Positions 16,929 through 64,000 of a stretch of DNA of 64,000 nt are shown one piece after another (position 1 is the first letter of the stretch; every line of letters starts with the position of its first letter). A model generated the notes under the pieces. That model did no database searches. It had not been told where the DNA came from and saw only the letters and a list, made by a program, of their open reading frames with translations. A program made the position numbers and the translations under genes. The stretch is from Opitutaceae bacterium (lineage in GTDB: Bacteria; Verrucomicrobiota; Verrucomicrobiia; Opitutales; Opitutaceae): the NCBI GenBank assembly GCA_025360455.1, contig JANYCF010000328.1, positions 4,451-68,450 on the forward strand. Direction: 5' to 3'.

Positions 16929-16931
16929 CCT

Positions 16932-33223: not shown

Positions 33224-33235
33224 CAAGCTACGAGC

Positions 33236-34229: not shown

Positions 34230-34264
34230 CCAATGCATTGCTAAGGCTCCGTTCGACTTTATTT

Positions 34265-35005
34265 ATGAATAAACTTTCTCAAATTACGGCGGCAATTTTG
34301 GCGGGTGGCGCAGGAACGCGTCTGCGTTCGGTCGTGGCGGATCGGCCCAAGGTACTCGCCCTGCTGGGAGGCAAACCTTTCATCTCCTATTTGCTCGACC
34401 GGTTGGCGGCGCAAGGCGTAGGGAAAGTGGTATTGTGTACGGGCTACATGGGTGAGCAGATGCAGGATCAATTGGGCGAGAGTTACCAAGGTATGCAATT
34501 ACTCTACTCGCGCGAAGAGCAACCGCTCGGCACCGGAGGCGCGATTATTCAGGCCTTACCGTTGCTTACTTCCGATACGATTTTGGTGCTCAATGGCGAT
34601 TCTTACTGCGAAACGGTGCTGCCTGCTTCGTTGGAATGGCATCAGGATCGTCAGGCGCGGGCGACGGTGGTGCTGGCTCATGTCGATGAGGGCGCGCGCT
34701 ACGGACAGGTCCAAATTAATTCCGAGGGACGCATCGAACGTTTTTGCGAAAAAAATCCGACGTACATTGGCGGGGGCTGGATCAACAGCGGTGTGTATTG
34801 GTTTGAGCGCGAGGTCTTGGCCGGTTTGCCTGCCGGTCGGGCACTCTCGCTGGAGAAAGAGGTGCTCGGTGCTTGGAGTGGAGACGGTCTTTATGGGTAC
34901 CGGGAGTATGGACGATTTTTAGATATCGGCGTGCCGGAAGATCACGCCCGGGCCGAACGCTTTTTGACGGTTGTGCATGAACCCATTGCGGGATTAGTCG
35001 TGTAG
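34265..35005 (+). CDS. hddC: D-glycero-alpha-D-manno-heptose-1-phosphate guanylyltransferase (HddC/GmhD-like nucleotidyltransferase)
   Basis: ILAGGAGTRLRSVVADRPK, EEQPLGTGGA, LNGDS, INSGVY and FLDIGVPED; context with gmhA and gmhB. Confidence 0.82.
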   Translation: MNKLSQITAAILAGGAGTRLRSVVADRPKVLALLGGKPFISYLLDRLAAQGVGKVVLCTGYMGEQMQDQLGESYQGMQLLYSREEQPLGTGGAIIQALPLLTSDTILVLNGDSYCETVLPASLEWHQDRQARATVVLAHVDEGARYGQVQINSEGRIERFCEKNPTYIGGGWINSGVYWFEREVLAGLPAGRALSLEKEVLGAWSGDGLYGYREYGRFLDIGVPEDHARAERFLTVVHEPIAGLVV

Positions 35006-43768: not shown

Positions 43769-43975
43769 ATGCGATTGAACTACTCGCTCTCGCCCGAGCT
43801 ATACCTGGATTTCCTGCGGACGAATTTTAGCGCCCACCCGCATGCCGATGCCGTCCCGGTCTCGCCCTTGGCCAGCCCGGATTCCTTGGCGGCTTTCTCG
43901 CTTGAAGACAGAATGGTTTCACGAGCCATGATGCAGGCGTTGGACAAAAAATACACCCTGAGCTCCCGATCATGA
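43769..43975 (+). CDS. 68-aa hypothetical protein
   Basis: Fills the gap before the GT; its stop overlaps the next start (ATGA). No family recognised. Confidence 0.4.
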   Translation: MRLNYSLSPELYLDFLRTNFSAHPHADAVPVSPLASPDSLAAFSLEDRMVSRAMMQALDKKYTLSSRS

Positions 43976-49127: not shown

Positions 49128-50258
49128 TCATACATGCGTGAACCAGAATGATCCGCCTTCGCGCCAAACGCCCGGATCGCCGACTCCGGGCAGCAGCGTC
49201 GGCTCCAGGCAGTCTTTGAGTCCCTCGGTATGCCCCAGATATTGGGAAGGCATGAGTATCTTGATGCGATCACCCATGCCGAGCAGGTAGACGGCCAGCA
49301 TGTACTGCTCGCTCCAGTACCAGTTCTTCGCCCACTCGGGATAATCAAACGGCAGCACGATGTCGTGAATGTGGACGATCACACCGGGCTTCAACAGGGG
49401 CAGCACATCCAGAAAAAATACCGTCACATCCGAATTCATAAAACAGCGGTGGCTGCCGTCCATGAAAACAATATCCCCCGGCTGGAGATCAGCGAAGACT
49501 TGGAGGTTGGGCAAAGTTTCGAGTCCGTCGCGGAGGACTTCGTCGCAAATACTGTCGATCGCGGCACGAGGCTCCGGGTCGATGGACAGAATGCGGGTCG
49601 GCAAGCCGTGGTCTTTGACCGCGCGGCGGGCAAAGCAGGTCGTGGCGCCGGAACCGATTTCCAGATACGTGGCCGGGCGATGTTTCCAGACGAAGTAGTA
49701 GAGCAGGGCCAGATCGAGCGCATTGATCGGCGCTCCCACCCAACCCGGTTCCGGGGCGGTTGCTCCGGAATAGTCCGGGCGAATTTTGCCGAGGTGCGGC
49801 ACGAGCGTCCGCAATTCGGCAATCAGGTTTTGATACTCGCGGTGGTTGCGCGCGAACAGGGCGGAGAGTCCGGCATGGGCCGGAATGCTGTAGCCCCAGC
49901 GCAGGCTCATGTTGCGCGAGGGCGGATAATCCAGGGGAAGGGCATACTTGGCATAGCGGGTGCCGGGCAGCGGTTGCAGCGCATGTTGCTGGGGCCGGCC
50001 GTTGCGCACCGCGATGCGACCGAGCAGTCTCAGTGTCTCCTGATTTTTGCGGTCAAGGGCGATCGAGCGCCAGGCGGCTTCTTCTGCTTCTGGTTTACGC
50101 CCCAAAGCGAGCAGAAGTGTGCCCAAGGAGGTCAGGAGATCGGGTTGCTCGCCATTCTGGGCGATGACTTCGCTCAGATAGCGGCAGGCGCCCGCGAGAT
50201 CGCCCGTCGAGACGGCGTCTTCATATTGGCTCATCAAAGTCTGGAGGGTAGTATTCAT
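49128..50258 (-). CDS. Class I SAM methyltransferase (Methyltransf_24-like) with an N-terminal TPR
   Basis: YLEIGSG.TT, SIDPEPR, FMDGSH and GVIVHIHDI.LPFDYP. Confidence 0.88.
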   Translation of the reverse strand: MNTTLQTLMSQYEDAVSTGDLAGACRYLSEVIAQNGEQPDLLTSLGTLLLALGRKPEAEEAAWRSIALDRKNQETLRLLGRIAVRNGRPQQHALQPLPGTRYAKYALPLDYPPSRNMSLRWGYSIPAHAGLSALFARNHREYQNLIAELRTLVPHLGKIRPDYSGATAPEPGWVGAPINALDLALLYYFVWKHRPATYLEIGSGATTCFARRAVKDHGLPTRILSIDPEPRAAIDSICDEVLRDGLETLPNLQVFADLQPGDIVFMDGSHRCFMNSDVTVFFLDVLPLLKPGVIVHIHDIVLPFDYPEWAKNWYWSEQYMLAVYLLGMGDRIKILMPSQYLGHTEGLKDCLEPTLLPGVGDPGVWREGGSFWFTHV

Positions 50259-50423: not shown

Positions 50424-51254
50424 TTACTCGATGCGTATACCACTGGTCTTGATCGCATCTATGGCCCATTGTGCGCGCCAACGTTTCCAATCCTCTTCCA
50501 TCCCCGTGTAAGGTTGGCCCCACTCGCGAATCCTTGCTTCTACTTTTGCCAGCCGGCCAGTCGCCTCCCAGAGTGTGCCTCCCTTGGAACCGAAGCTGGA
50601 CGCTTTTTGGTAAATGCGCTGACAAGTGACCGGTGCGCTCGTGAAAACGACTCCATGTCGCGCCGGGAGCGCATGGTTCATCAAAAAATCAATCTGCGGT
50701 CCCAGGCTGAAATCAAAACCTCCAATCTCCTGCATGCAGTCCCGGCGCCAAATGCTGCTGCTGCCGGGCGCAAACATGTTCCCGCGCAGGAAGTCGCGAT
50801 AGCAATCCTCCGGCGGGATGTAGCCCTCGCGGGAAGCAGAGCCAAATTTACCTGTGACCTGATTTTGCTCGGCATCAAGCAACCCGACGACGCCAAAGAA
50901 ACCTGCAGCAGTGGGATGCTCGGCCAGCGCGGTCGCCGCCAAGGCAAGGAAGTGTTCGTTAAAGATGAAATCATCCGCGCCTTCACCAAAGATGTAAGTG
51001 CCGGTGACGCGTTCCAACGCGTTCTTTGTCGCGGCCATCAAGCCTTGATTTTTGGTGAAAAAGTGGGTTTTGAGCCGCGAATCTTTGGCCGCAATCCCAG
51101 CAATGATCCGCTGGCTGCCATCGGTGGAACCATCGTCAGTGATGACGACCTCGAAGTCGGTGAAAGACTGGCGCAACATACCAGCCAGGCACTGCGGCAG
51201 GTATTTCGCGTGATTGTAATTGCAGAGATAGATCGAAAACGTCGGTGCAGACAT
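50424..51254 (-). CDS. GT2 glycosyltransferase
   Basis: YLCNYNHAKYL, ITDDGSTD and GADD. Confidence 0.92.
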   Translation of the reverse strand: MSAPTFSIYLCNYNHAKYLPQCLAGMLRQSFTDFEVVITDDGSTDGSQRIIAGIAAKDSRLKTHFFTKNQGLMAATKNALERVTGTYIFGEGADDFIFNEHFLALAATALAEHPTAAGFFGVVGLLDAEQNQVTGKFGSASREGYIPPEDCYRDFLRGNMFAPGSSSIWRRDCMQEIGGFDFSLGPQIDFLMNHALPARHGVVFTSAPVTCQRIYQKASSFGSKGGTLWEATGRLAKVEARIREWGQPYTGMEEDWKRWRAQWAIDAIKTSGIRIE

Positions 51255-51290: not shown

Positions 51291-52532
51291 TCAGACCACG
51301 CGCATCTCCGGCAGTGGGACGATGAAGTGGCCACCTTGAGTCAAGTATGCCTGATTGCGCGCGATGATCATGTCGGCGAACCGCCAGGCGAGAATGAGTA
51401 AGTAATCTGGTTTGCGTTCGGCCAACGCGGTAGATGCTACAATGGGAATGTGATCGCCGGGGCTGTAGCGGTGCTGACGCACGGGATTATCGTCGACAAT
51501 GAAGTCCATGACACCGCCGAGGCCAAAGTGGTAGGTCAACACGGTCCCGGTGGCCGAGGCACCATAGCCTGCGATGGTTTTCCCCTCCGTTTTTAGCTTG
51601 GTGAGCAAATCGTTCAGACGAACCTTCGCCGCGTCGATCCGGTTGCCCCACGCGGTGTAGGTTTCCAGGCGATATAGACCGTACTCGTTCTCGAGGAGCA
51701 GGAGACGCGGGACCTCGGGTGATTCGACGCGCGGGCCGCCAGCCAGTTGGGCGTAGCAGCGGATCGTGCCTCCCTTGCTGGCAGTGCGCTCGACGTCGAT
51801 CAGCTGGAGGCCATGGCGCTTGAGGAAAATCTGGAGCGGTTTGACGGAGTGATGGCTGAGGTGTTCGTGGTAGATGAAGTCGAACACCATGTTTTCAATC
51901 ATATCAAGCAGGTACGATACTTCGAAAACAAACACACCGTTGGGTGCGAGGAGGGCGCGGATGCCGTCCGCCATGTCACCGAGGGTATCCGAGTGGGCGA
52001 AGACGTTGTTGGCGGTCACAAGTCCAAAGTCGCCGCGGGTGCGGCGGAGTTCCGTGCCGACCTGGCTGTTGAAAAAGCACGGCAGGGTTTCGATGCCTGC
52101 GGCGGTGGCGGAGGTGGCGACCTCGCTGGCCGGATCTACGCCGAGCACACTCAGGCCCTGGGCCTTGAGAAAAGAGAGCAGGGTGCCGTCGTTGCTCCCG
52201 ATATCGAGGGCGCGCGACCCGGGGGCGGGTTTCACCTTGCTGACGACATGGGTGGCGTAGTCGCGAAAATAATTCACCAGGCCCGGTGAGCTGGCGGTCG
52301 TGTAGATGTAATCCCCGAAGAGCAGTTTCGGCGACACCACGTCCAGCAGCTGGCCGTGGCCGCATGTTTCGCAAAGGTAGAGATTAATTGGAAAACGCGG
52401 TTGAGCGACGGAACGTTTTTCCTCCGTGATGAACGCATCGACTGGTGGACAATCCGTGAGCTTCAGGGCGAGCGGTACTTTAGGGCTGTCGCAAAGACGG
52501 CAGGTGTGACGGTGGTAAACGAGGGATTCCAT
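51291..52532 (-). CDS. NDP-sugar C-methyltransferase (TcaB9/KijD1/TylC3-like, Zn-binding)
   Basis: CRLC...CETC Zn site, LDIGSNDG, IYHEH and GYGASA. Confidence 0.9.
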   Translation of the reverse strand: MESLVYHRHTCRLCDSPKVPLALKLTDCPPVDAFITEEKRSVAQPRFPINLYLCETCGHGQLLDVVSPKLLFGDYIYTTASSPGLVNYFRDYATHVVSKVKPAPGSRALDIGSNDGTLLSFLKAQGLSVLGVDPASEVATSATAAGIETLPCFFNSQVGTELRRTRGDFGLVTANNVFAHSDTLGDMADGIRALLAPNGVFVFEVSYLLDMIENMVFDFIYHEHLSHHSVKPLQIFLKRHGLQLIDVERTASKGGTIRCYAQLAGGPRVESPEVPRLLLLENEYGLYRLETYTAWGNRIDAAKVRLNDLLTKLKTEGKTIAGYGASATGTVLTYHFGLGGVMDFIVDDNPVRQHRYSPGDHIPIVASTALAERKPDYLLILAWRFADMIIARNQAYLTQGGHFIVPLPEMRVV

Positions 52533-52544: not shown

Positions 52545-53354
52545 TTATTTTATTTTCCGGGTGGGCGGCGCTGCGGCATCGAGGGGAACGAGTTCCCGCG
52601 CGAGCGCCTCTTGGAAAACCAAGGTGAGGCCGCCGTCGACCACGAGGTCCTGGCCGGTGATAAAGGAGGAGCGGGGGCCGGCGAGAAACGTGACCGCTTC
52701 GACCACTTCGTCGGCGCGGCCTAGTCGGCCGAGCGGGATGATGCGTTGGTAAAGATCGACGAGCTTGGGCTTGGCGAGAATCACGTGTTGGGATTCCTCC
52801 TTGAGGAAGGTGCCGGGCGAGACGCTGTTCACACGGATGCCACGGGCACCGAGCGCGACGGCATAGTAGCGCACGATTTGGTTCAGCCCGGCTTTCGCGA
52901 CGTGGTAGCCGAGGGGCAGGTGCCGGGAAATGAGCGAGGCGTTGACGGAGCTCACGATCACGATCGCGGCATCGCGCAGGTTGAACTTTTGGACGAGCAT
53001 TTCAATCAGGGTCCGGGTGCCGGTCAGACTGGTTTCGATTTCCCCCTGCCAGGCATCGCCGGTGCCGCGGTAACGCTGGAAGAAAGCGACACTGTGAAGC
53101 GGGCCGCGCGCACGGGTGATCGCGGTGATCGCGGCTTGCAAAGCCACGGGGTCGTTCAGATCGGCCTGCCAGTAACGCCCGGCGTCCGGCTTGTTCCGGG
53201 CCGGGGAGGGTGGATTCCTCGCGAGTACTGACACGCGGTAACCTTCGGCGATCAGACGCCGTACGGCGAGCCGGCCCGCTCCACGCGTGCCGCCCACGAC
53301 GAGTGCGTGCCGCTTGCTTCGGAATGTTCGCGCAGTGGCCATCAGGTCAGACAA
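52545..53354 (-). CDS. Classical SDR oxidoreductase
   Basis: VVGGTRGAG, YHVAK (YxxxK), RVNSVSPG and ITGQDLVVDGG. Confidence 0.92.
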   Translation of the reverse strand: MSDLMATARTFRSKRHALVVGGTRGAGRLAVRRLIAEGYRVSVLARNPPSPARNKPDAGRYWQADLNDPVALQAAITAITRARGPLHSVAFFQRYRGTGDAWQGEIETSLTGTRTLIEMLVQKFNLRDAAIVIVSSVNASLISRHLPLGYHVAKAGLNQIVRYYAVALGARGIRVNSVSPGTFLKEESQHVILAKPKLVDLYQRIIPLGRLGRADEVVEAVTFLAGPRSSFITGQDLVVDGGLTLVFQEALARELVPLDAAAPPTRKIK

Positions 53355-54414
53355 GGACGGCGGTGCGTTGGTCGGCGGCTTCGCGCAAGGAGCGCATGAA
53401 GTCGGCGACGGCGGGCAGGTCGGTTTCAGCCGGCGCCCAGACGGCCCAGACGGTATCCTCGCGGCGGAACGGACCGGGTGTCGCCTCGTGAATCACGAGA
53501 CGTTCGGAGCGCATGATGATGGTGTGGTAGACAAATGCGGGTACGCGAATGTAGAACTGGCGACCGGTGCCTTCCGCGCCGAGCGGAATGATTTCAGTGA
53601 TCTTGCCCTGGGCGTCGAAGAAAATGAAATCGGCTTCACCCTCGAGGATGTGCAGCGATTCGTCCTTGTTAATATGCTTGTTTGGTTTCACGTAGGTCAT
53701 GTCCATGTAGACAACGAACATTTCGTGCAGCGTGTTCTCGAGTTCCTTGTGGGTGCAAAGGCGCACACGTTTGCGGGCGGTGGTTTGCACCGTCTGTTTC
53801 AGAAATTCGATTTCCTTGCGGCCGATGCTGACGACCGCTTGATCGGCGACGAAGACCTCTTCGCCGGTGCGCTTCATCTGCAACATCGGGCGTATGGCGC
53901 GGGGCGTAAGACGCAGCTTGTCGAGGAATTTGGCAACGGCGGCTTGATTGGCATCCTCGGGCGACCAGGCGGAGAACACGGTGTCCTCGCGCTTGAACGG
54001 CCCAGGCGTGGTCTCGTGGATGGCGATGTCGTCGGAGCGGATGAGCAGCGCGTGCTCGGTCGAGGCCGGGATGCGGCAGTAGAATTGGTAGCCGGAACCA
54101 TAGGCGCCGAGGGAAACGACATCGGTGACGGAGCCGTCCGGGCCAAAAAAGAAATAGTCGGCTTCGCCTTCGAGCAGGTGGAGCGATTCGTCTTTGCCCA
54201 CGTGGAGGCTGGGGCGGACGTAGTTCGTGCCCGTGAAGGCGATGAACATTTCATGCATGCGGTCTTCATTGGTCTTGTGCATGCAGGCGCGCACGCGCCC
54301 TTTGGGCGACTGTTCCAGATGCTGGCGGAGAAAAGCGGCGTGATCCTGACCGACGCTGGGGAAAGTTTCCTCGGTGATGAACACTTCGGGACTGACGGGA
54401 CGTAGTTTATGCAT
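53347..54414 (-). CDS. Tandem WbuC-family cupin protein (two cupin repeats)
   Basis: RVRACMH...HEMF...YVRPSLH..KDESLHLLEG repeated as RVRLCTH...HEMF...YVKPNKH..KDESLHILEG. Confidence 0.85.
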   Translation of the reverse strand: MHKLRPVSPEVFITEETFPSVGQDHAAFLRQHLEQSPKGRVRACMHKTNEDRMHEMFIAFTGTNYVRPSLHVGKDESLHLLEGEADYFFFGPDGSVTDVVSLGAYGSGYQFYCRIPASTEHALLIRSDDIAIHETTPGPFKREDTVFSAWSPEDANQAAVAKFLDKLRLTPRAIRPMLQMKRTGEEVFVADQAVVSIGRKEIEFLKQTVQTTARKRVRLCTHKELENTLHEMFVVYMDMTYVKPNKHINKDESLHILEGEADFIFFDAQGKITEIIPLGAEGTGRQFYIRVPAFVYHTIIMRSERLVIHEATPGPFRREDTVWAVWAPAETDLPAVADFMRSLREAADQRTAVLV

Positions 54415-54444: not shown

Positions 54445-55269
54445 TTAGCTGAAACGGACAATGGGACGCTTGGTGAGTTTGAACTTCACGGCCTGCTGGA
54501 GATGCAGCTGGCGCTCCTCGGGCGAACGATATTGAAACTGGTTGGGGGTCAGGTCGCTGGTGGAGTCCGGGCCCTTTTCGGCGATACAGATGGTGAAATA
54601 TTCGCAAGGTGGACCGAAGAACTGGCCATTGGCCATCACCTGATCACCTTGGATCTTGATCGGTTCCCAGAGAGTCCATTCCAGTCGGCTGTTCCACTTG
54701 TCGGGGGTGGGGAAGGTGGCGAGGTAGGTTTTGCAGTCGGCAAAGTTGTTCACTGAATAGTAGTCGTGAAACCAGTCTGGCGGGAAGGTGAGATAGGGGC
54801 CGTTCACCCGGGTGCCGTGCTCAAGGTGGACAATGCGTCCACCGGGTTTGAGCATACGGCTCATGTTGCGGAGGCTGGTTACCGGGTCCCAGACGTTGTC
54901 GAGCACGCTGCCGTTGTAGATAAAGTCGAAACGGTTTTCCAATTCGGGGGGAATGGGCCGGTTAAGATCCCAGACAATGTCAGCCCCCTCGAAATTACTG
55001 TGGTCGAGGGAACGGAGCTCCCCCGTGCTGAACGAACCGAAGAACGACTTGTCGTCGATGAACTGATCCATGTCCGAGTTTGTGGTGGAACGGTCGATCT
55101 GGATTTTTTCGGGAGGTGGACAGGGCAGACCTTGTTGTTCCAAAAAGGTTTTGAGCAGGGGGGGCGTGATGTGGATCGTCTGCCGGCCGATGGTGAGGAT
55201 CTGGCCGGTGATATTTTTGTACACATGCTCACGAATGATATACTGTCCGACTTGGGGGAGTAAGCCCAT
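54445..55269 (-). CDS. Methyltransferase-like protein
   Basis: SLDHSNFEGADIVWDLN and FDFIYNGSVLDNVWDP...LKPGGRIVH. Confidence 0.72.
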   Translation of the reverse strand: MGLLPQVGQYIIREHVYKNITGQILTIGRQTIHITPPLLKTFLEQQGLPCPPPEKIQIDRSTTNSDMDQFIDDKSFFGSFSTGELRSLDHSNFEGADIVWDLNRPIPPELENRFDFIYNGSVLDNVWDPVTSLRNMSRMLKPGGRIVHLEHGTRVNGPYLTFPPDWFHDYYSVNNFADCKTYLATFPTPDKWNSRLEWTLWEPIKIQGDQVMANGQFFGPPCEYFTICIAEKGPDSTSDLTPNQFQYRSPEERQLHLQQAVKFKLTKRPIVRFS

Positions 55270-55317: not shown

Positions 55318-55992
55318 TCAGGCGCGGCGGTCTGAGCCGATGGCGAAAAGATAATGGGCCATCTTGTGATAGCCGGTGTGCACGACCTCATCGTTCATCG
55401 AGAAGAGAAAGACGTTGTGGAAATACCGGGCCATCAACTGGCGGAATTCGTCACCGGACTTGCAGTTCACATGACCAGCCTTGCTACCGGGAGAAGCATA
55501 GGTCTGGGACTCGAGCGACGGCGAACCGAGGATGCACACGCCGTGCGGCCCGAGTGATTTCACCATGTTGCCGACGAAACGGTCCTCGTCCTCGGCATGG
55601 ATGTGCTCGATCACATCCACGGCATAGACGCCGTCGAACGGGCCGTTCACGGGGCCGGTCAGCATGTCATGGGTGAAACATTCGAACGGCCACGCTGGGT
55701 CTATCCGGCGGTTGACGTCTTCCACGAACACCGGATCGAAATCGGTCGCGGTCAGTGCCTTCACTTCCTGGCGCACCACGCGGGTGCCGAATGCATCGGC
55801 GCAGCCAACTTCCAACACGCGGTTCATGCCCGAAAACATTTTTGAGACGAACTTGTAGCGGGCGAGGACGAAGCCGAGCCGGCGTGGATCGTCGTGCCAG
55901 ACCTGATTGCTCATCAGGCCGAACTCGGTGCGGCGTTGCTCCGCCAGCTCGAGGCAGCGGTCGTATTGCGGTTCTTTGGTGTGAGTGATCAT
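55318..55992 (-). CDS. Class I SAM methyltransferase
   Basis: VLEVGCADAFG, ATDFD and FDGVYAVDVIEH. Confidence 0.88.
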   Translation of the reverse strand: MITHTKEPQYDRCLELAEQRRTEFGLMSNQVWHDDPRRLGFVLARYKFVSKMFSGMNRVLEVGCADAFGTRVVRQEVKALTATDFDPVFVEDVNRRIDPAWPFECFTHDMLTGPVNGPFDGVYAVDVIEHIHAEDEDRFVGNMVKSLGPHGVCILGSPSLESQTYASPGSKAGHVNCKSGDEFRQLMARYFHNVFLFSMNDEVVHTGYHKMAHYLFAIGSDRRA

Positions 55993-56010: not shown

Positions 56011-56676
56011 TTATTCGAAATAGATGAACTCATAGTCCCCTCGGTAGCCGAAGTGCCGGTAGAGCCAGAGCCACTCGGCGGTGTCGAAAAACGATGCGCA
56101 CGTGAGGGCCCAGCACTGGAGGTTGAAAAGCTCCTGCTCGGAGCGATAGCTCTCGAGCAGCAGATAACCTTGGTGCCCGACGCGGTTCATCTCGCCGAGC
56201 GCCACCTGCAACTCCGGCAGGCGGAGGTTGTGCAGCGCGTTCAAGGTGATCACTAGGTCGAAGTGTTGGTCAGCAAACGGCAATGGCTTGCGGGCGTCAT
56301 GCAGGCGCAGGTCGGCCTTCAGCTCCGGATGGCGTCCGTCGATACCGGATTGTGAGGTATCCACGCCGACCAATTCGAGGCCGGGCTGGAGGCGTTGCAT
56401 TTCGTAGAGCAGAAATCCTTTGCCGCAGCCGATATCGAGAACGCGCGAGCCGCCCTGGAGGCCATAAGTGGTGATGAGGGCCTGTGCGACCGGGGCCCAA
56501 CGGCCGGGGAGATATTTGTAGCCACCGTACCCGTAGCGGCGGTCGCCGTCCCAATAGTCTGGGCCGTATTCCTTGGCTTTGAGCATGCAGGCCACTTTGT
56601 CATCCCTCATCCGCTCGATGTATTTGCGAGCGGTGGCTTGATGAAGCGGGGTGACGAAATTGCGGAGTGTGCCCAT
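56011..56676 (-). CDS. Class I SAM methyltransferase
   Basis: VLDIGCGKG, GVDTS and FDLVITLNALHN. Confidence 0.9.
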   Translation of the reverse strand: MGTLRNFVTPLHQATARKYIERMRDDKVACMLKAKEYGPDYWDGDRRYGYGGYKYLPGRWAPVAQALITTYGLQGGSRVLDIGCGKGFLLYEMQRLQPGLELVGVDTSQSGIDGRHPELKADLRLHDARKPLPFADQHFDLVITLNALHNLRLPELQVALGEMNRVGHQGYLLLESYRSEQELFNLQCWALTCASFFDTAEWLWLYRHFGYRGDYEFIYFE

Positions 56677-56697
56677 GGGATTTGGCGTGGTGGAAAA

Positions 56698-58350
56698 TCA
56701 GGAAGCGAGGGCGAGCGGCGGGTGAAGCGCGGCGGCGGCTTTGGCAAGCTGGGTCGTTTTGCGCGCGACGATGTCGGCCGTGCCCGCGAAGCGGCGGCGC
56801 CGGTTTCCGGCCGGGAGAAACTCATTGAGCATGATCGTACACCATTTGAGTTGGTAGATGGGAAGCAGCAGGCGGCAGCGGGCGGCGAGGACCGCGGGCG
56901 AGGCGCAACCAAGTGCGGCGGCAACGCGGGAGATGAAGTTTTCGTAGCAGTCAGCCGGCGCCGGAATCGCGGGCTGGCAGAAGAAATCGCAGACAAGTTT
57001 GGCGGGATCATCCCAACCGGCGTACTCGAAATCAAAAAACATCAGCGAGCCATCGGTCCGGCGCAGCGTGTTGTGGAAACCGAAGTCGGAGGGCGAGACA
57101 CAGCGGGGCATGGGGGCGGAGTCGGCGTTCACGTCGGAAAGCGCCGCGACGAGGGCGGGGTGATGGAGGGCGTTTTGCCAGGCGGGGAAAAGGGTATCGT
57201 TCACGAATAAACGAGCGGTGGCGTCGATTGGGTCCGTACCGGATATGCTGGCGAGACGATCCATGCGGCTTTGCACGGTGGCGAGATGCTCGGCCAGGGT
57301 GTGGCAGGTCTCGGCGGCGGGGCGGATGACATCGGCGCGGGTGCGGGCGTGGTTGAGTTGGGTGAAAAAATCGAGAGCGGCATCCACGTCTGCGGAGGTG
57401 GCCTGTTCTAGGCGGGTACCTTCGACCAGGGCAAACGCGCCCAGACGATCCGTCTCGTCCCATGCGAGCGGTTCCGGGATGCAGCGCACGCCGGCGGATT
57501 CCCAAGCGAAAGTATAAAACGCATGCTCGGAGTGGTAGCGGTCGCGGGTGTCGTTGGCCGGCGTGAAATATTGCTTCACGATGTAATCACGGCCGCTGGC
57601 AGTGCGGGCGCGGTGCACGCGATTGTTGGCGCCGCCGGGGAGCGGTTCCAAGGTGTGAGGCATCTCGCCGAAGAAGCGATTGAGCAGGCGCGCGAGGGCG
57701 GCGGGTTGCAGCGCGGCGGCCTGGATGTCGGTCACGGCGTGGGTAATGTCGAGCAAGTGCGACTGAAGATCGGTCCACGTGGCGAAAACGTGGTCACCGG
57801 TGATAACTGGCCCGGTGATGTTCGGGGCGAATAGCAATTGGGCGGTGTTGGCCGGGAAGGCCGAGTCGGACAGGATATCGGGCAGATCATCGATGAAATG
57901 AGTGCACTGGCACGAGGCGATGCGGGCGAGCTTGGCGGATTTCGTTAGCTCGAAAAAGATTTGCTCGGGACGCAGGCCGGCACCGTCGGGCGAGAAGAAG
58001 CCCTGTTGCACGAGCCAGTCCTGGGCGGCGGCGTGCAGATCGTATGGCTCGCCGACGAACGGATGGCGGGTCTTGTGACTGATGATGCAGACGGTGATGC
58101 CGTGTTCGCGGCAGGCGCGAAAGAAATCATGCACGCCGGGAAACGGTTCAGCCTCGGCCATACGTGGGCCGTAGACGCAGCCTTGCAGGGCCGTCCACTC
58201 GGGCTCGCGACCGGCAGCGCGGAGATAATCGCGAACGGCGTTCTTCGTGGCGGCAACACCGGCGGGCACGAGCCCGCGCTCCAATGCGACGCGAGGGAAG
58301 AGCGCGTCGTAGCGGACGATGGTGTTGTCGAAATCTACGCCGATAATCAT
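56698..58350 (-). CDS. HAD phosphatase fused to an APH/choline kinase-like phosphotransferase
   Basis: N-terminal IGVDFDNT, IISHKT and FIDDL (HAD); C-terminal GGANNRV, SPSDFGFHN and FFDFEYAGWDD (APH). Confidence 0.85.
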   Translation of the reverse strand: MIIGVDFDNTIVRYDALFPRVALERGLVPAGVAATKNAVRDYLRAAGREPEWTALQGCVYGPRMAEAEPFPGVHDFFRACREHGITVCIISHKTRHPFVGEPYDLHAAAQDWLVQQGFFSPDGAGLRPEQIFFELTKSAKLARIASCQCTHFIDDLPDILSDSAFPANTAQLLFAPNITGPVITGDHVFATWTDLQSHLLDITHAVTDIQAAALQPAALARLLNRFFGEMPHTLEPLPGGANNRVHRARTASGRDYIVKQYFTPANDTRDRYHSEHAFYTFAWESAGVRCIPEPLAWDETDRLGAFALVEGTRLEQATSADVDAALDFFTQLNHARTRADVIRPAAETCHTLAEHLATVQSRMDRLASISGTDPIDATARLFVNDTLFPAWQNALHHPALVAALSDVNADSAPMPRCVSPSDFGFHNTLRRTDGSLMFFDFEYAGWDDPAKLVCDFFCQPAIPAPADCYENFISRVAAALGCASPAVLAARCRLLLPIYQLKWCTIMLNEFLPAGNRRRRFAGTADIVARKTTQLAKAAAALHPPLALAS

Positions 58351-59285
58351 AGGGAACAGGCGACGTTCAGGCTACGGCGGAGCGCGGTGCTGATCGCTTC
58401 GGCTGTCAGGCCAAAATGCGCACGAGCTTCGTCCTGATCGCCGATATCATGATAAAAAGTGTCGGGCGTGCCGAAGCGGACCAGACGCGCCTCGGGGTGG
58501 GGGTGGTCGGCGAGCCATTCGGCGACGGCACCGCCAAAACCGCCGAGCACGCTGTGCTCCTCGATGGTGGCGACGAGAGTGTGGGCGGCGAAGACGCGGC
58601 TGAGCGCGGCTTCGTCGAGCGGCTTGACGGTCGGGAAACTGATGACTTCAGCCGTGATGCCTTCGGCCGCGAGTTGGCCGGCAGCTTGGAGGGCGATGGG
58701 TAGCAGCACGCCGTTGGCGAGGAGGCAGAGATCCTTGCCCACGCGCATGGGGATAGATTGGCCGAGCGCGAGTCCGGCGGGCGGGGCAGAGTGCACGACG
58801 GGTTCACCTTTTTTGCCGATGCGCATGTAAGTGGGCTGGTCCTGATGGAAAGTGGCCCGCAGCAGGGCGCGGACTTCCATGGCGTCGGCTGGCGTGAGAA
58901 CATTCATCTCGGGCAGAAGCCGGAGCATGCCGACTTCCTCGCAGGAATGGTGCGTGCCGCCGAGGGAGGCGTAGGCGAGACCCGCACCGGTGCCGACGAT
59001 GGTGACGGGCAGGCGATGGTAGCAAAGATCCACGCGGATCTGCTCGATGCAACGGTAGGTGACGAAAGGAGCGATCGTGTAGCACACGGGACGCAGGCCG
59101 CACATCGCGAGGCCGGCGGCGACCCCGATCATGTTAGCCTCGGCCACGCCGCAGTTGTAGAAGCGGTCGGGGCAACGGACCTTGAAATCGTCAAAGAGGC
59201 GGTTGCCGATATCGCCCGAAAGAAGCACGATGCGTTGATCGGCGATGGCCAGTTCAGTGATGGCTTGGGCGAAGGCGTTTCTCAT
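58347..59285 (-). CDS. Split transketolase, C-terminal (pyrimidine-binding) subunit
   Basis: Start MRNAFAQ at 59285 (ATGA overlap); CGVAEANMIG, GGTHHS and TIEEHSVLGGFG. Confidence 0.92.
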   Translation of the reverse strand: MRNAFAQAITELAIADQRIVLLSGDIGNRLFDDFKVRCPDRFYNCGVAEANMIGVAAGLAMCGLRPVCYTIAPFVTYRCIEQIRVDLCYHRLPVTIVGTGAGLAYASLGGTHHSCEEVGMLRLLPEMNVLTPADAMEVRALLRATFHQDQPTYMRIGKKGEPVVHSAPPAGLALGQSIPMRVGKDLCLLANGVLLPIALQAAGQLAAEGITAEVISFPTVKPLDEAALSRVFAAHTLVATIEEHSVLGGFGGAVAEWLADHPHPEARLVRFGTPDTFYHDIGDQDEARAHFGLTAEAISTALRRSLNVACSL

Positions 59286-60145
59286 GGCGAGCAGAGGAGT
59301 TGGGCGGCGAGGTCGACTTCGGCGGCATCGGGGATGCGATAGTGCCAGTTGTTGTCGTCCTCCATGAAGGAGACGCCCTTGCCCTTGACCGTGTGCGCGA
59401 TGATGGCGCGCGGTCGGCCCGTGGCTTCGCCGCGGGGAGCGAGGGCGGCGGCGAGGGCGGAAATATCGTGGCCGTCTACTTCGGTGGCGTCCCAACCGAA
59501 GGCACTCCACTTGTCGCGGAGCGAAGCGAGGGCCAGTACTTCGTCGCTGCGGCCGGTGGCCTGCCATTTGTTGTAGTCAATCACGACGGTGAGACGACCG
59601 AGAGATTTTCCGGCGGCGAACATCGCGGCTTCCCAGACAGAGCCTTCGTTGCATTCGCCGTCGCTCATGACGACGAGCGTGCGGTAGTCGAGATTTTGAA
59701 TGCGGCCAGAAAGCGCGAGGCCGCAACCGACGGGCAGACCGTGGCCGAGGGAACCGGTGGCGAGTTCGACCCCAGGAGCGCAATTAGGCGCGGGTTGTTC
59801 GGCGAGTTTGCCTCCGTGAACGGCGAAGGTATCGAGCCACGCTTCGGGAAAAAATCCCCGGGCGGCGAGGCAGGTGTAGAGCGCGGGAGCGGCGTGGCCC
59901 TTGCTCAGAATAAAGCGGTCGCGGTTCGCGGCAGACGCTGCGGCGGGATCGATGCGCAGGGTAAGCCAGTACGCAGCGACGAGAATATCGATGCAGGAGA
60001 GCGAAGAACCCAGATGCGGCGCACCGGAAGTGTGCGACATCTGCACGACTTGGTAGCGGAGGTTACGCGCGACCTCGGTGAGATCGGCAGGAGTAGCCCC
60101 GAAGGGCACCTGGGCGGGACGGCGTTGTTGGGGCAGGGTTTTCAC
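59282..60145 (-). CDS. Split transketolase, N-terminal (ThDP-binding) subunit
   Basis: HLGSSLS, DRFILSKGH, GSLGHG, SDGECNEGSVWEA...DYN and HTVKGKG. Confidence 0.93.
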   Translation of the reverse strand: MKTLPQQRRPAQVPFGATPADLTEVARNLRYQVVQMSHTSGAPHLGSSLSCIDILVAAYWLTLRIDPAAASAANRDRFILSKGHAAPALYTCLAARGFFPEAWLDTFAVHGGKLAEQPAPNCAPGVELATGSLGHGLPVGCGLALSGRIQNLDYRTLVVMSDGECNEGSVWEAAMFAAGKSLGRLTVVIDYNKWQATGRSDEVLALASLRDKWSAFGWDATEVDGHDISALAAALAPRGEATGRPRAIIAHTVKGKGVSFMEDDNNWHYRIPDAAEVDLAAQLLCSP

Positions 60146-61188
60146 GAGCTGAAGAGGGGAAAGTGAATCATGGCGTGAATGACTTCGCCGGAGCGCAGGC
60201 GGGCGATGGCGTCGTTGACGTCGGCGAGTGGAAAGCGATCGGTGACAAATCCGGCGGGATTGAAGCGGCCCGCGCGAAGCATGCGGACGAGGCGCGGAAT
60301 ATCCTCCGCCGGTTGACTGCCGCCGCCGTGGGAGCCGGTGAGGACTTTGCCGAAATGAAGCGGCAGGGTGTTGAGGGAAATTTTCTGATCGTGGGCCATC
60401 ACGCCGAAGATCACGCAGCGGCCGGTCGGAGCCGTGAGAGCGAAGGCTTCTTCGATCACGGCGGGCAGGCCTGTGCCATCGATCACGACGTCGGCCGGAC
60501 CGTTGAGGAGGGCCTGGACGGCGGTGCGGAAACCCGTGGAGGCGGAATTGATCACGTGCGTCGCGCCGTAGGCGCGCGCCTTGGCGAGTTTGTGTTCGTG
60601 GAGGTCAACGGCGATGACGGGGTGTGCGCCGGCGAGGTGAGCGCCGAGCACGGCCCCGAGCCCGATGCCGCCGCAGCCGATAATGACGACCGATTCGCCG
60701 ATGCGGACTTTCGCATCGTGGGTAATTACGCCGAAGCCGGTGGTGAGGGTGTCGGCGAGCAGGGCGCAGATTTCGAAATTGAGATCGATCGGAACCGGCG
60801 TGAGGCGGTTTTCCGAGACGACGCTGAATTGCTGGAAAGTGGTGATGTTACCGGCGTTGACCTTCGAGCCATCAGCACGGAGATAGGTGCTGCCTCCGGC
60901 CTCGATGCCGCGACCGGGACGCCAGTGAATGACGACGCGATCGCCGATCTTGACGTGGCGAACTTCGGGACCGGTCTCGCGGACAATGCCGCCGGCCTCG
61001 TGGCCGAGCAAGTGCGGTAAATATTTATCGGGACCTTTCGAACCTTGAATTTCACCGATCTGCGATCCGCAGATTCGGGTCGCGGCAATCTCAACGAGAA
61101 CCTGGCCATGACGGAGCACAGGGATTTCCAGCTCGGCAATTTCCAGCGGGCGGCGTTGTTCGATTAAGATGGCAGCGAGAGTCTTCAT
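60142..61188 (-). CDS. Zn-dependent medium-chain dehydrogenase
   Basis: ICGSQ, LGHEAGG and IIGCGGIG; lacks the structural-Zn Cys cluster. Confidence 0.9.
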   Translation of the reverse strand: MKTLAAILIEQRRPLEIAELEIPVLRHGQVLVEIAATRICGSQIGEIQGSKGPDKYLPHLLGHEAGGIVRETGPEVRHVKIGDRVVIHWRPGRGIEAGGSTYLRADGSKVNAGNITTFQQFSVVSENRLTPVPIDLNFEICALLADTLTTGFGVITHDAKVRIGESVVIIGCGGIGLGAVLGAHLAGAHPVIAVDLHEHKLAKARAYGATHVINSASTGFRTAVQALLNGPADVVIDGTGLPAVIEEAFALTAPTGRCVIFGVMAHDQKISLNTLPLHFGKVLTGSHGGGSQPAEDIPRLVRMLRAGRFNPAGFVTDRFPLADVNDAIARLRSGEVIHAMIHFPLFSS

Positions 61189-61209
61189 GACAGCGGGCAG
61201 CGCTGGAGT

Positions 61210-62154
61210 TTAGGCGCAGATGGCGAGCTGCTTCATCGTTTTAATGTTGTAGCAGTTTTCCTCGTCGCGGAGATGGCCCGCGCGGTAATTTGTGATGACG
61301 TCGGTAATGCCGTCTTCGACGGTGAACTTCTGGACAAAACCGGTGGCGAGCAGTTTCTTGGAAGACAGGCGGTAGGAACGCGGGTCGTTGGAAGGCGTGA
61401 CCACGATCTCCACGCCGAGGCGTTTTTGCACGCGCTGGGCGATTTCGAGAATGGAGATGTTTTCGAAGCCGGCATTGAAGATCCCGGGATGGGCCAGGCC
61501 GCAACCGAGGAAATGGTGATACACACGGATCATGTCGCGGATATGAATGTTGGGTCGCGTCTGATCGCCGCCGAAGACCGTAATCTTGTTTTTCGTGAGG
61601 GCGGACATGGTCAGCACGTTGACCGAGAGATCGAGCCGCATGCGGGGCGAATAGCCGCAGACCGTGGCGGGACGCACGATGTTGACACAGATTTTGTCGG
61701 CATAGCTGAGCAGCACGCGTTCGCTGATCATCTTGGTTTTGTTGTAGTCGGAGATGGGCACCAACGGAAGATCCTCGGTGACTTCCGGTTCGTCTTTCAC
61801 GCCGTAGACACTGCCGGAGCTGGCGAAAATGAATTGGGGAACTTGGTGCGCGATGGCCCGTTCGACGAGCAGCATGGTGGCGAGGGCGTTGACCTCCCAG
61901 TTGAGCTTGGAGTCGAGATCGGCGCAGGGATCGTTGGCGACGTTGGCCAGATGCATGATCACATCCATGCCGGCCATCGGAATACGGTCGGCGTCGCGCA
62001 CGTCTTCCTTGATGACGGTGAGATTGGGGTGCGCCGGCAAAAAGTTGCCGAACCACTGGAGATCCACGACGGTGACCGTGTGGCCCGCTTCGAGGAGACT
62101 GAGGGTGAGCGGGGTGCCGACATAACCGCAACCGCCGGTGAGTAGAATTTCCAT
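61210..62154 (-). CDS. Extended SDR NAD-dependent epimerase/dehydrogenase
   Basis: Start MEILLTGGCGYVG at 62154; ASSGSVYG, YNKTK and RPATVCGYSPRMRLDL. Confidence 0.9.
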   Translation of the reverse strand: MEILLTGGCGYVGTPLTLSLLEAGHTVTVVDLQWFGNFLPAHPNLTVIKEDVRDADRIPMAGMDVIMHLANVANDPCADLDSKLNWEVNALATMLLVERAIAHQVPQFIFASSGSVYGVKDEPEVTEDLPLVPISDYNKTKMISERVLLSYADKICVNIVRPATVCGYSPRMRLDLSVNVLTMSALTKNKITVFGGDQTRPNIHIRDMIRVYHHFLGCGLAHPGIFNAGFENISILEIAQRVQKRLGVEIVVTPSNDPRSYRLSSKKLLATGFVQKFTVEDGITDVITNYRAGHLRDEENCYNIKTMKQLAICA

Positions 62155-62171
62155 GGAGGGGTGGGAGAAAT

Positions 62172-63788
62172 TTAGAATGCGAGCATCGAGGTTCCGCCTT
62201 TGAGGAGGCGGGCCTTGCGGATGGGTTCGGCGTTGCCGACGATCTTGACGGCCTGCGCTCCGGCGAGTTGACCCATGAAGGTGGCGACGTTGAGCGGGAC
62301 ACGACTGGCCGCGGCGAGACTGGCGACGGCACAGAAGGCGTCGCCGGCTCCAACCGCATCCACCACGACATGATCGAGCGGAGGACAGGCGGTGATGCCT
62401 TTCACACAGTTGCGTCCGAGCGTCTGGTGGGCGCCGCGCGTCAACCACGCATAGCTGCTCCCGAGGTGGGTCGCGAGGTTCGTGAGCTCCTGCCCGAAAT
62501 CGATTTCCCGGCGGCCGACGGCGAGGTGCAGCTCGGTTTGGTCGAGGGTAAATACATCCGCGCGGCGGTACCGGCGATTGATGATATTGAAACCGTGATT
62601 GTTGCTGTTCGTCTGGCAATTGATGGCGAGGAACGGTGCCTTGTCCTGCACGTAGTCGCGTACGATGTCCTCCATCACGCCGTGGCCGAAATCCATCACG
62701 AGCACGAGATCGTAGCGCGAGATTTCGCCGGCGATGTGCTCCTGCAAAATGCGCTGCAGGGCTTCTCCCGGCATGTGCCTGTTAAGGTAGTTGACGGAAA
62801 AAAGTTTCGCGAGCTCTTTGCCCTCGACGCGCGGCTCGACGTAGCGCTGTTTCACAATCGTCGTGAAATCCGGGGAGCGGACAATCCGGTCGCCCTCGGG
62901 CCCGATGAAGCCGGCCAGCAGGCCGTCGATCCACGGCTCGGTGCCGGTTAATCCGATCAGCTTGACGTGCTGGGTGAATTCTTTGAGGTGCCGGTAGACG
63001 GCGAGAGCTCCGCCGGCCTGCATTTCTTCGGAGACAAAACGTCCGGATAGAATGCGGTTTTTCGAAGTGAGGCCTTGTACTTCGACCGTGGAATATTTGT
63101 CGAAGATGATATCGCCGATGACCAATACTTTCAGTTTGGCAAAGCTGTCGATGATCTGACGGAAGCGCGTGGGCGGACATTCCTGCGCGACGAGTTGGCA
63201 AAAGCTTTTCACCTCCGGCGGATAGGGATCAAAATGTTTGTTGAGCAGACGCGTTGAACTGAAAAGGATGGAACCGAGGTAGCGCATTTCGCCGCCCACG
63301 CGCTGCACGGTGAGAATATCATCACCGATATTGTTCGTGAGATCCGTCAGCGGGTCGGCGTATTCGCGGCCCTTGCAATAGAAGTGCGCGCGGATGCACT
63401 CGATGGCCTCGACGGCGGCGGGATAGGGTATCACCACGACGTAGTCCACGCACCACAGGGCCGCGAGCCAGCGGGAACGCAGCTGATCGTTGAAGTAGGG
63501 GCGACCGGGACCTTTGTTGACAAACTTCTCGCCCGTAATCGTGACGACGAGAATGTCACCCAAAGCTTTCGCTTCCTCGAAATGCACGATGTGCCCGGGA
63601 TGGATCAGATCGAAGGTGCCGTGACAATGAACGATGACCTTGCCCTGCTCGCGCAACCGCGTGCACAGAGGGCCGGCGTGGTTGAAGCCCACGATTTTTT
63701 CCTGCGGGCGAGGCGCAACTGAGACCACTCGTTTGGTGGCGACAAGGCGGCGAGTCCGCTTCGGGACCATGGATTTTAGCAAAGTCAT
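62172..63788 (-). CDS. Bifunctional nucleotidyltransferase (HIGH type) + PfkB kinase; HldE/RfaE-like with reversed domain order
   Basis: HGTFDLIHPGH, GPGRP and YCKGREY at the N-terminus; VIGDIIFD, DFGHG and DAVGAGDAF at the C-terminus. Confidence 0.9.
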   Translation of the reverse strand: MTLLKSMVPKRTRRLVATKRVVSVAPRPQEKIVGFNHAGPLCTRLREQGKVIVHCHGTFDLIHPGHIVHFEEAKALGDILVVTITGEKFVNKGPGRPYFNDQLRSRWLAALWCVDYVVVIPYPAAVEAIECIRAHFYCKGREYADPLTDLTNNIGDDILTVQRVGGEMRYLGSILFSSTRLLNKHFDPYPPEVKSFCQLVAQECPPTRFRQIIDSFAKLKVLVIGDIIFDKYSTVEVQGLTSKNRILSGRFVSEEMQAGGALAVYRHLKEFTQHVKLIGLTGTEPWIDGLLAGFIGPEGDRIVRSPDFTTIVKQRYVEPRVEGKELAKLFSVNYLNRHMPGEALQRILQEHIAGEISRYDLVLVMDFGHGVMEDIVRDYVQDKAPFLAINCQTNSNNHGFNIINRRYRRADVFTLDQTELHLAVGRREIDFGQELTNLATHLGSSYAWLTRGAHQTLGRNCVKGITACPPLDHVVVDAVGAGDAFCAVASLAAASRVPLNVATFMGQLAGAQAVKIVGNAEPIRKARLLKGGTSMLAF

Positions 63789-63797
63789 GAAAAAGGT

Positions 63798-64000
63798 TCA
63801 GGGCTTGTGAATGTAGTCGAAGGGTTGCTGGCGGATCTCAGCCAGGTGTGCATCCACCCAGGCGATCGTGGCACGTACGCCCTCTTCGAGGGAAACGGTG
63901 TCGTTCCAACCGAGCGATTGACGGGCCTTGGTGCTGTCCAAGGTATAGGCCGCATCTTTGCCGGGACGGTCGTCGGTGATTTGCGCGACGTGGTTGAAAT
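63798..64000 (-). CDS. 3' end of an NDP-sugar 4,6-dehydratase/epimerase (RfbB/Gmd-like); truncated by the window end and absent from the track
   Basis: Manual translation: FNHVAQITDDRPGKDAAYTLDSTKARQSLGWNDTVSLEEGVRATIAWVDAHLAEIRQQPFDYIHKP-stop. Confidence 0.82.
   Translation of the reverse strand, partial: FNHVAQITDDRPGKDAAYTLDSTKARQSLGWNDTVSLEEGVRATIAWVDAHLAEIRQQPFDYIHKP

Follow-up and report, generated by a model that had tools for sequence, protein, structure and literature searches.

A split-transketolase operon of an Opitutaceae bacterium, a predicted variant of the Bradyrhizobium gdh cluster, may make a carbon-extended heptose

Bradyrhizose is a non-immunogenic O-antigen sugar that has so far been made only in 26 chemical steps. 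To our knowledge, how cells form it has been open since 2011, and the formation of the carbocyclic sugar caryose for longer, with one mutated gene in one cluster as the only genetic handle; our literature search found no paper describing a bradyrhizose pathway and nothing relevant for transketolase combined with flagellin glycosylation or with O-antigen and cytidylyltransferase. The sugar has ten carbons in a bicyclic structure, with the aldehyde at C1 and hemiacetals through O4, O5 or O9 (PMC9912281), which fits a quaternary C4 bonded to C9 at the ring fusion. Disruption of gdh (BRAO285v1_100023, which carries the annotation dTDP-glucose 4,6-dehydratase) in Bradyrhizobium strain ORS285 leads to loss of the O-antigen, a homopolymer of bradyrhizose; the gene is one of eleven clustered sugar-enzyme genes with perfect synteny across six photosynthetic strains (Busset et al. 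2016, PMC4743980). Here, we analyzed a 64,000-nt stretch of contig JANYCF010000328.1 from an Opitutaceae bacterium (the window, to which all positions refer), whose minus strand carries an operon with a split transketolase, i.e., separate genes for the N-terminal (TKN) and C-terminal (TKC) subunits. We consider it somewhat probable that region 56011-64000 is the core of a roughly 18-gene operon, related to the gdh cluster, that makes a nucleotide-activated, carbon-extended and methylated heptose for a surface glycan. This reading rests on gene content, synteny, orthology, residue changes and likeness to the heptose dehydrogenase Cj1427, from which we infer the substrates, the order of steps, the role of an APH-fold kinase and the product.

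The Bradyrhizobium locus, found via an alphaproteobacterial homologue of the APH-fold kinase and fetched from the photosynthetic strain STM 3843, consists of exactly 11 co-directional genes next to Wzm/Wzt, with a GT2 glycosyltransferase gene after them. They encode, in order, a cytidylyltransferase-like protein fused to a PfkB kinase (CTase-PfkB), a nucleotidyltransferase (NTP-transferase), a short-chain dehydrogenase/reductase (SDR312), an SIS-domain isomerase, a second SDR (SDR332), TKN, TKC, a Zn-dependent alcohol dehydrogenase (Zn-ADH), a HAD phosphatase, the APH kinase and a methyltransferase (MT). Of the published ORS285 gdh primers, the gene-specific portions fall in SDR332 (positions 5642-5664 and 5999-6022 of the fetched locus, L085) with 4 and 1 mismatches and 381 bp apart, consistent with the internal fragment of 300 to 400 bp given by Busset et al., and the same 11-gene layout recurs in three Bradyrhizobium-related contigs of metagenome-assembled genomes (MAGs). 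On the Opitutaceae side, a public contig (L088), which was reached through the CTase-PfkB protein and gave a 5-kb extension, is 100% identical to the window over 1829 bp (62172-64000) and provides the complete 332-aa dehydratase-like gene, then a GmhA-like SIS gene further upstream of the window end. Nine of the 11 cluster proteins are 44-62% identical to proteins of the window and L088, namely, the Cj1427-like extended SDR, the GmhA-like SIS protein, an RmlB-like SDR, TKN, TKC, Zn-ADH, HAD, APH and the methyltransferase MT1. Specifically, the RmlB-like SDR, encoded directly upstream of CTase-PfkB, is 58% identical to STM 3843 gdh, while the extended SDR and MT1 are 61% and 47% identical to their cluster counterparts, the latter being the 11th gene. 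The two clusters also share the local order TKN-TKC-(ADH)-HAD-APH-MT, then GT2. Judged by its encoded proteins, the window operon is a distant, enlarged verrucomicrobial variant of the gdh cluster.

All of the genes listed in the initial annotation are present on the minus strand from 64000 to 56011 in the order claimed, based on Pfam, NCBIfam and the translations (Table 1). Genes overlap by GTGA at the ADH/TKN junction and by ATGA at both the TKN/TKC and TKC/HAD-APH junctions; where they do not overlap, the gaps are 17-21 bp between 64000 and 56011 and otherwise 12-48 bp. We found that the run drawn there cuts the operon short at both ends; downstream on the minus strand it continues to about 49128 and adds genes for two further methyltransferases (MT2 and MT3), a tandem WbuC cupin, a short SDR, a TylC3-type C-methyltransferase, a GT2 protein and a TPR-methyltransferase. 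Alternative long open reading frames (ORFs) that overlap these genes (e.g., 61210-62619 and 58347-59567) were rejected as GC-rich read-throughs upstream of the real starts.

The cassette is not restricted to this lineage. Scanning one genome per species, we found that at least 544 species encode a relative of the HAD-APH protein, for which more than 3600 homologues were counted in a separate search; these species span Verrucomicrobiota, Planctomycetota, Elusimicrobiota, Alphaproteobacteria, Cyanobacteria, Chlorobiaceae, Acidobacteria, Woesearchaeota and others; the closest among the matches listed (92% identity) comes from a genome labelled Opitutus sp. GAS368. The statement in the initial annotation that similar cassettes occur elsewhere without an assigned product proved right. 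We then matched the window proteins to every ORF of 54 loci, all from other species and with enough flanking DNA around the HAD-APH homologue. Both TKN and TKC are encoded in 48 loci; CTase-PfkB, MT1 and the RmlB-like SDR in 44 each; the extended SDR in 43; Zn-ADH in 38; and the GmhA-like SIS protein in about 21 (most loci having a single SIS gene). Besides these core members, accessory genes encode the WbuC cupin (22 loci, usually together with an SDR and a C-methyltransferase), the C-methyltransferase (21), an HddC-like transferase (16), MT2 and the short SDR (15 each) and a GmhB-like HAD protein (13), while an MT3 homologue occurs in two. In Bradyrhizobium and other loci, GT2 genes follow the cassette. 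Because core genes recur in 38-48 of the 54 loci, the arrangement is far beyond chance. The cupin of the window has two full domains in 355 aa; in most loci it is a single-domain protein of 164-178 aa.

The split transketolase was aligned to the Carboxydothermus split enzyme (6YAK/6YAJ) and human transketolase, using E. coli residue numbering. In the window enzyme and 59-64 cassette homologues, the residues that bind thiamine diphosphate (ThDP) and metal or act in catalysis are kept (H26, H66, H261, D155, N185, E411 and H473). The window TKN has Gln in place of H100, SDG for GDG and TGSLGHG for TGSLGQG, and its TKC retains R358 but carries S385R, H461G, D469L and R520K, all four of which are shared with the gdh cluster. 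Among the cassette enzymes, H461G and R520K are found in 59 of 59, Asp469 is Leu or Asn in the same 59, Ser385 is Arg or Lys in most, and the Gln-to-His change in the TGSLG motif is universal. The change at His100 is limited to the mainly verrucomicrobial lineage of the window, and Bradyrhizobium keeps His. In the engineered transketolase of Geobacillus (TKgst), S385, H462 and R521 hold the acceptor phosphate, and changes there open the enzyme to long non-phosphorylated aldoses, while the use of pyruvate as donor requires H102L together with H474S (PMC11997939). The three phosphate-site positions altered in the cassette enzymes are those that govern acceptor length and phosphate dependence in TKgst. 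From these residues, the acceptor pocket is judged to be remodelled, and the enzyme is predicted to be catalytically competent yet not a pentose-phosphate transketolase, since H461 and D469 are lost and S385 and R520 changed while the ThDP residues are kept. In loci L015 and L046, the cassette pair is accompanied by another split transketolase that is more divergent, with Leu for His100, Ala for Ser385 and Leu for Asp469.

The best sequence match of the extended SDR in the Protein Data Bank (PDB) is 6vo6, i.e., Cj1427 with bound GDP-heptose (4.5e-33). Its model (mean predicted local distance difference test score [pLDDT] of 92.7) has Cj1427 chains as its top six Foldseek hits, with template-modelling (TM) scores of 0.80-0.88, and its identity to Cj1427 is 31-33%, compared with 24-27% to other SDRs. 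Cj1427 is the Campylobacter jejuni heptose C4-dehydrogenase, in which alpha-ketoglutarate reoxidises the tightly bound NADH and L-2-hydroxyglutarate is released (PMC10680097). We propose, based on sequence and model, that the extended SDR is an NDP-heptose C4-oxidase of the Cj1427 type. The same glycan locus encodes an L-2-hydroxyglutarate oxidase (LhgO), whose gene adjoins GmhA-, GmhB- and HddC-like genes; in six of the 54 other loci, a homologue is encoded no more than 10 kb from the cassette. Circumstantially, LhgO could recycle the L-2-hydroxyglutarate released by the Cj1427-like SDR, and its pairing with a C4-dehydrogenase of this type may not have been described before.

In the RmlB-like SDR, which the initial annotation called a dehydratase, the STDEVYG motif reads STPEVYG, and YxxxK reads YxxxR in both the window organism and Bradyrhizobium. 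The dehydration Asp is found in none of 65 cassette homologues, and the NCBIfam score for dTDP-glucose 4,6-dehydratase is 205 against a cutoff of 365. Since the Asp is replaced by Pro and the Lys by Arg, a 4,6-dehydratase function is unlikely; an SDR lacking this Asp would fit a fully hydroxylated carbocycle. The Zn-ADH is proposed to catalyze an alcohol/aldehyde or ketone redox step.

The activation enzymes resemble those of heptose pathways at a distance. CTase-PfkB has intact HxGH and GAGD motifs in a domain order reversed relative to HldE, scores 106.6 bits for HldE against a cutoff of 521 (rfaE_dom_I and rfaE_dom_II also being far under their NCBIfam cutoffs) and matches human ECT (1.7e-16) and HldA (8e-8) in the PDB. 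By its score and by the position of its kinase, which is N-terminal in HldE, it appears HldE-like but falls outside the HldE family. In the HAD-APH protein, the DxDxT, S/T, K and DD motifs of the HAD part are invariant in 24 homologues, as are the DxxxxN and DFE motifs; its model (pLDDT of 86) confirms the APH fold and retrieves generic APH-fold small-molecule kinases with Foldseek, which discriminate no substrate. In most other phyla, HAD-APH is one protein of 530-600 aa, whereas in Alphaproteobacteria (L022, L032, L033 and L085, around 10000-10600) HAD and APH are separate adjacent genes that overlap by a few bases, and the fusion therefore marks a functional couple. An apparent in-frame stop in L032 was considered as a sign of a pseudogene but proved to be the boundary between the separate HAD and APH genes. 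The GmhA-like isomerase on L088 is divergent (107 bits against the gmhA cutoff of 209), and the glycan locus holds a second, plus-strand heptose-activation set with a near-canonical GmhA-like protein (Table 1). No HddA-type kinase was found in this set (32621-35005), where the 430-bp gap at 33808-34238 lies outside the genes examined.

Taken together, these enzymes could be arranged as follows. The GmhA-like isomerase would convert sedoheptulose-7-phosphate to heptose-7-phosphate, and the PfkB, HAD and cytidylyltransferase-like domains would turn the latter into an NDP-heptose, as HldE and GmhB do. The Cj1427-like SDR would oxidise C4 to a ketone, with alpha-ketoglutarate reoxidising the bound NADH and LhgO regenerating alpha-ketoglutarate, while Zn-ADH would make or remove a second carbonyl, most simply a C7 aldehyde. 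The split transketolase, with its rebuilt acceptor pocket, would deliver a two-carbon unit that attacks C7 or C4 first, followed by aldol closure with the other carbonyl. A two-carbon unit joining C4 and C7 would give a six-membered carbocycle fused to the pyranose at C4-C5, which is the bradyrhizose skeleton (seven plus two carbons giving nine), and this carbocycle agrees with the C4-C9 bond deduced above from PMC9912281. Either MT1 or the TylC3-type C-methyltransferase would supply the tenth carbon. Tailoring of the product would fall to the Asp-less RmlB-like SDR, the APH kinase, MT2/MT3, the WbuC cupin and the short SDR, and its transfer to the GT2 protein. The more specific proposal that the transketolase, Cj1427-like C4-dehydrogenase and Zn-ADH insert a two-carbon bridge between C4 and C7 of an NDP-heptose, giving sugars of the bradyrhizose and perhaps the caryose class in over 500 species of bacteria and some archaea, is put forward tentatively, and we regard it as rather doubtful. 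The broader view of the initial annotation, in which an unusual monosaccharide arises from a sugar by activation, oxidation and extension through C-C ligation, is the best supported, given the gdh orthology, the remodelled pocket and the Cj1427-like SDR; its option of a polyol phosphate as the starting compound is disfavoured by the GmhA-, HldE- and Cj1427-type heptose enzymes.

Several points weigh against a carbon-extended heptose of the gdh-cluster type. We know of no transketolase that uses ketones or NDP-sugars as acceptors, and the placement of carbon 10 in bradyrhizose is in part assumed. The functions given to the cassette enzymes are read from sequence and fold; the scheme has a surplus kinase (APH) and an Asp-less SDR without a specific step; and the window enzyme has Gln at the donor-recognition residue His100, such that the donor or product may differ. 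The two CTase-PfkB proteins share only 23% identity, and the NTP-transferase of Bradyrhizobium has a 27% match 21 kb away on the other strand, with no counterpart among the neighbours here. Hundreds of species carry the cassette, among them non-photosynthetic Bradyrhizobium, for which there is no report of bradyrhizose. Our view of the cluster itself comes from STM 3843 and the MAGs rather than from ORS285 or BTAi1, look-ups of ORS285 and ORS278 proteins having matched only other Bradyrhizobium strains and MAGs, and the role of the gdh cluster in bradyrhizose formation is an assumption of its authors, the genetic evidence being a polar-prone insertion in one gene, with polar effects possible (PMC4743980).

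Among the alternatives, the transketolase might act at the reducing end, adding a ketol unit to C1 of D-glycero-D-manno-heptose-7-phosphate; the GmhA-like isomerase would then convert the resulting nonulose-9-phosphate to an aldo-nonose-9-phosphate, and the kinase, phosphatase and nucleotidyltransferase would activate it to give a C9 sugar that is linear or is cyclised later. The pocket is cationic (R358, K520 and R385) but lacks H461, as expected for a longer phosphorylated acceptor, the change of D469, which reads the 2R-hydroxyl of normal acceptors, to Leu could admit a manno-configured heptose, and the cassette isomerase is a divergent GmhA, while a near-canonical one is encoded elsewhere in the locus; engineered transketolases are also known to elongate C5-C6 aldoses to C7-C8 ketoses (PMC11997939). 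We nevertheless hold this route to be unlikely: Zn-ADH would have no acceptor-creating role, the Cj1427-like C4-dehydrogenase and LhgO would go unexplained, most loci have a single SIS gene, and a linear nonose alone does not give the C4-C9 bond of bradyrhizose. Less probable again is that the transketolase simply supplies sedoheptulose-7-phosphate by pentose-phosphate chemistry for a methylated or epimerised heptose. The GmhA-, HldE-, GmhB- and Cj1427-like enzymes all indicate heptose chemistry, no ThDP-binding or catalytic residue is lost, and among solved structures a genuine split transketolase comes closest. A transketolase confined to pentose-phosphate reactions, which the initial annotation named as the finding that would speak against it, is nonetheless at odds with the loss of the normal-substrate binders S385, H461, R520 and D469, replaced in essentially all cassette enzymes; translational coupling to Zn-ADH and HAD-APH across phyla is not needed for a supply enzyme, and the sugar to which the homologous cluster is linked has ten carbons rather than seven.

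A route to a CDP-polyol, similar to methylerythritol phosphate (MEP) chemistry, seems very improbable. There, a DXS-like ThDP enzyme would build a ketose, Zn-ADH would reduce it, and the kinase and cytidylyltransferase would yield a CDP-alditol, comparable to CDP-ribitol or CDP-glucitol. This would suit the transferase domain, which is nearest to ethanolamine-phosphate and glycerol-3-phosphate cytidylyltransferases, the TKC scores, which are almost equal for DXS and transketolase, the APH fold, which includes choline and ethanolamine kinases, and the His100-to-Gln change of this lineage, a change at that position favouring pyruvate as donor. It would, however, leave the GmhA-like isomerase, two nucleotide-sugar SDRs (one of them Cj1427-like) and the TylC3-type C-methyltransferase without substrates, and the Bradyrhizobium O-antigen, a bradyrhizose homopolymer, has no polyol phosphate. 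A nucleotide-activated, carbon-extended heptose remains our preferred product.

Table 1. Genes of the operon and of the heptose-related set in the same glycan locus (window positions)
Feature	Position	Strand	Basis
RmlB-like SDR, 3' end (67 codons + stop); full gene 332 aa on L088	63798..64000	-	Orthologue of Bradyrhizobium gdh
CTP_transf_like + PfkB fusion (HxGH transferase N-terminal, PfkB sugar kinase C-terminal)	62172..63788	-	PF01467+PF00294
Extended SDR, epimerase/dehydratase family; proposed NDP-heptose C4-oxidase	61210..62154	-	6vo6 match, Foldseek
Zn-dependent medium-chain alcohol dehydrogenase, class I/III-like	60142..61188	-	Pfam ADH_N+ADH_zinc_N; NCBIfam, PDB matches
TKN, transketolase N-terminal (PP-domain) subunit, cassette type	59282..60145	-	PF00456; 6YAK 1.5e-62
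TKC, transketolase C-terminal (Pyr + C domain) subunit, cassette type	58347..59285	-	PF02779+PF02780; 6YAJ 7.9e-58
HAD phosphatase (residues 1-~200) + APH-fold small-molecule kinase (~215-550) fusion, 550 aa	56698..58350	-	Homologues, model
MT1, class I S-adenosylmethionine (SAM) methyltransferase, core member	56011..56676	-	Pfam; 44/54 loci
MT2, class I SAM methyltransferase, NodS-like, accessory	55318..55992	-	Pfam, NCBIfam; 15/54 loci
MT3, weak class I methyltransferase-like, rare accessory	54445..55269	-	Weak Pfam matches; 2/54 loci
Tandem WbuC-family cupin (DUF6016 x2), accessory tailoring enzyme	53347..54414	-	TIGR04366 4e-66, two stretches
Classical short-chain dehydrogenase; probable ketoreductase of tailoring triad	52545..53354	-	Pfam adh_short_C2; 15/54 loci
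TylC3-type NDP-keto-sugar C-methyltransferase	51291..52532	-	Methyltransf_13+Methyltransf_14; 21/54 loci
GT2 glycosyltransferase at operon end	50424..51254	-	PF00535
TPR + Methyltransf_24 protein, last co-directional gene, 165-bp gap before	49128..50258	-	Pfam
LhgO, L-2-hydroxyglutarate oxidase	35008..36288	+	NCBIfam NF008726 507 bits, cutoff 299
HddC-like nucleotidyltransferase (second heptose-activation set)	34238..35005	+	NCBIfam HddC 145 bits
GmhB-like HAD (second heptose-activation set)	33236..33808	+	NCBIfam GmhB 88 bits
GmhA-like (second heptose-activation set)	32621..33223	+	NCBIfam gmhA 198.8 bits, cutoff 209 (near-canonical)

The operon lies within a glycan locus that runs from about 19.6 kb to past the window end, the first 19.5 kb of the window being unrelated housekeeping genes. 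At the edge of the locus is a KpsF/KdsD-type SIS+CBS arabinose-5-phosphate isomerase gene (19623-20618, minus strand) that shares sequence with a 416-aa ORF read from the other strand (20355-21605). Very large multi-domain glycosyltransferases are encoded at 21860-32202 (minus strand) and 43972-47541 (plus strand), including a 1307-aa GT2+GT4 protein, two GT4 proteins of about 760 aa and a 1189-aa GT4+GT2 protein, and the same regions encode a 592-aa methyltransferase, a TPR-FkbM protein and a TPR-Methyltransf_24 protein, possibly chain-length or terminating methyltransferases. Between them on the plus strand are two GT41 (OGT-like) glycosyltransferases (37437-41938 and 42317-43495), one with C-terminal TPRs, and after them a radical SAM/SPASM enzyme. 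Among the window proteins scanned, none was a Wzm/Wzt, Wzx/Wzy or WaaL protein, and the glycan may therefore be attached to LPS, a capsule or protein.

These comparisons place the gdh cluster within a cassette family found across many phyla and narrow the bradyrhizose pathway question to a short list of enzyme assays. If the proposed chemistry is true, it would be a new type of reaction for the transketolase family and offer a biocatalytic route to carbocyclic higher sugars, and unusual surface sugars would be predicted in Verrucomicrobiota, Planctomycetota, Elusimicrobiota, cyanobacteria and others. Should the C4-C7 bridge also hold, carbocycle-fused sugars would be widespread, overlooked building blocks of cell surfaces with lineage-specific methylation and tailoring.

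Compared with canonical and split transketolases (EC 2.2.1.1), the cassette enzyme has the same fold, subunit split, ThDP and metal ligands and catalytic His and Glu, but differs family-wide at the four substrate-binding positions S385, H461, D469 and R520 and in the TGSLGQG motif. The ADP-L,D-heptose pathway employs GmhA, HldE, GmhB and HldD, and we know of no heptose pathway that includes a transketolase, a Zn-ADH or an APH kinase. GDP-heptose modification in C. jejuni involves GmhA, HddA, GmhB, HddC, Cj1427, Cj1430 and Cj1428 (PMC10680097). With such NDP-heptose pathways, the operon shares a GmhA-like isomerase, an HxGH nucleotidyltransferase in fusion with a PfkB kinase, a phosphatase of the HAD type and an SDR whose nearest relative is Cj1427, and the alpha-ketoglutarate/L-2-hydroxyglutarate logic is suggested here by LhgO in the locus; it differs in that its scores are all far under the family cutoffs and its HAD is not of the GmhB type.

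The parallels drawn in the initial annotation to YerE and AviB1/B2 are analogies rather than relationships, as these belong to other ThDP families (acetolactate synthase-type and E1-type, respectively). YerE, ErwE and MMAR_2332 likewise form a ThDP-dependent C-C bond on an oxidised nucleotide sugar, followed by reduction, but they are acetolactate synthase-type enzymes (TPP_enzyme_N/M/C) that act with a pyruvate aldolase (PMC9306805). No TPP_enzyme protein was found by Pfam among the window proteins scanned, the ThDP enzyme of the window being transketolase-type. Downstream of its cassette, locus L087 (HAD-APH 90% identical to that of the window) encodes at 15094-20476 a DmpF-like acetaldehyde dehydrogenase, a DmpG/HMGL-like aldolase, an SDR, an acetolactate synthase-type ThDP enzyme and a methyltransferase, an acyl-branched-sugar module of the ErwE/YerE type that is absent from the window. 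For comparison with that module, Burkholderia caryophylli makes both carbocyclic caryose and acyl-branched caryophyllose. Caryose is a 4,8-cyclo-3,9-dideoxy-nonose that forms a (1->7) homopolymer, and its biosynthesis is stated to be unknown (PMC9092360). Like the skeleton proposed here, caryose has nine carbons, for which the sum of seven and two fits, and a carbocycle closed by a bond from C4, but its ring is five-membered and it has deoxy positions; by this structural likeness, caryose is a further candidate product class of the cassette.

The closest of these systems is the gdh cluster, from which the window operon differs in several respects. HAD and APH are separate there and fused here; the transketolase keeps His100 there and has Gln here; Wzm/Wzt adjoin the cluster there and none are in view here, in a different phylum, Verrucomicrobiota; and MT2, MT3, the tandem WbuC cupin, the short SDR and the C-methyltransferase are extra here. 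Because of the His100-to-Gln change and these additional genes, the comparison suggests that the product of the window operon would be a modified sugar rather than bradyrhizose itself.

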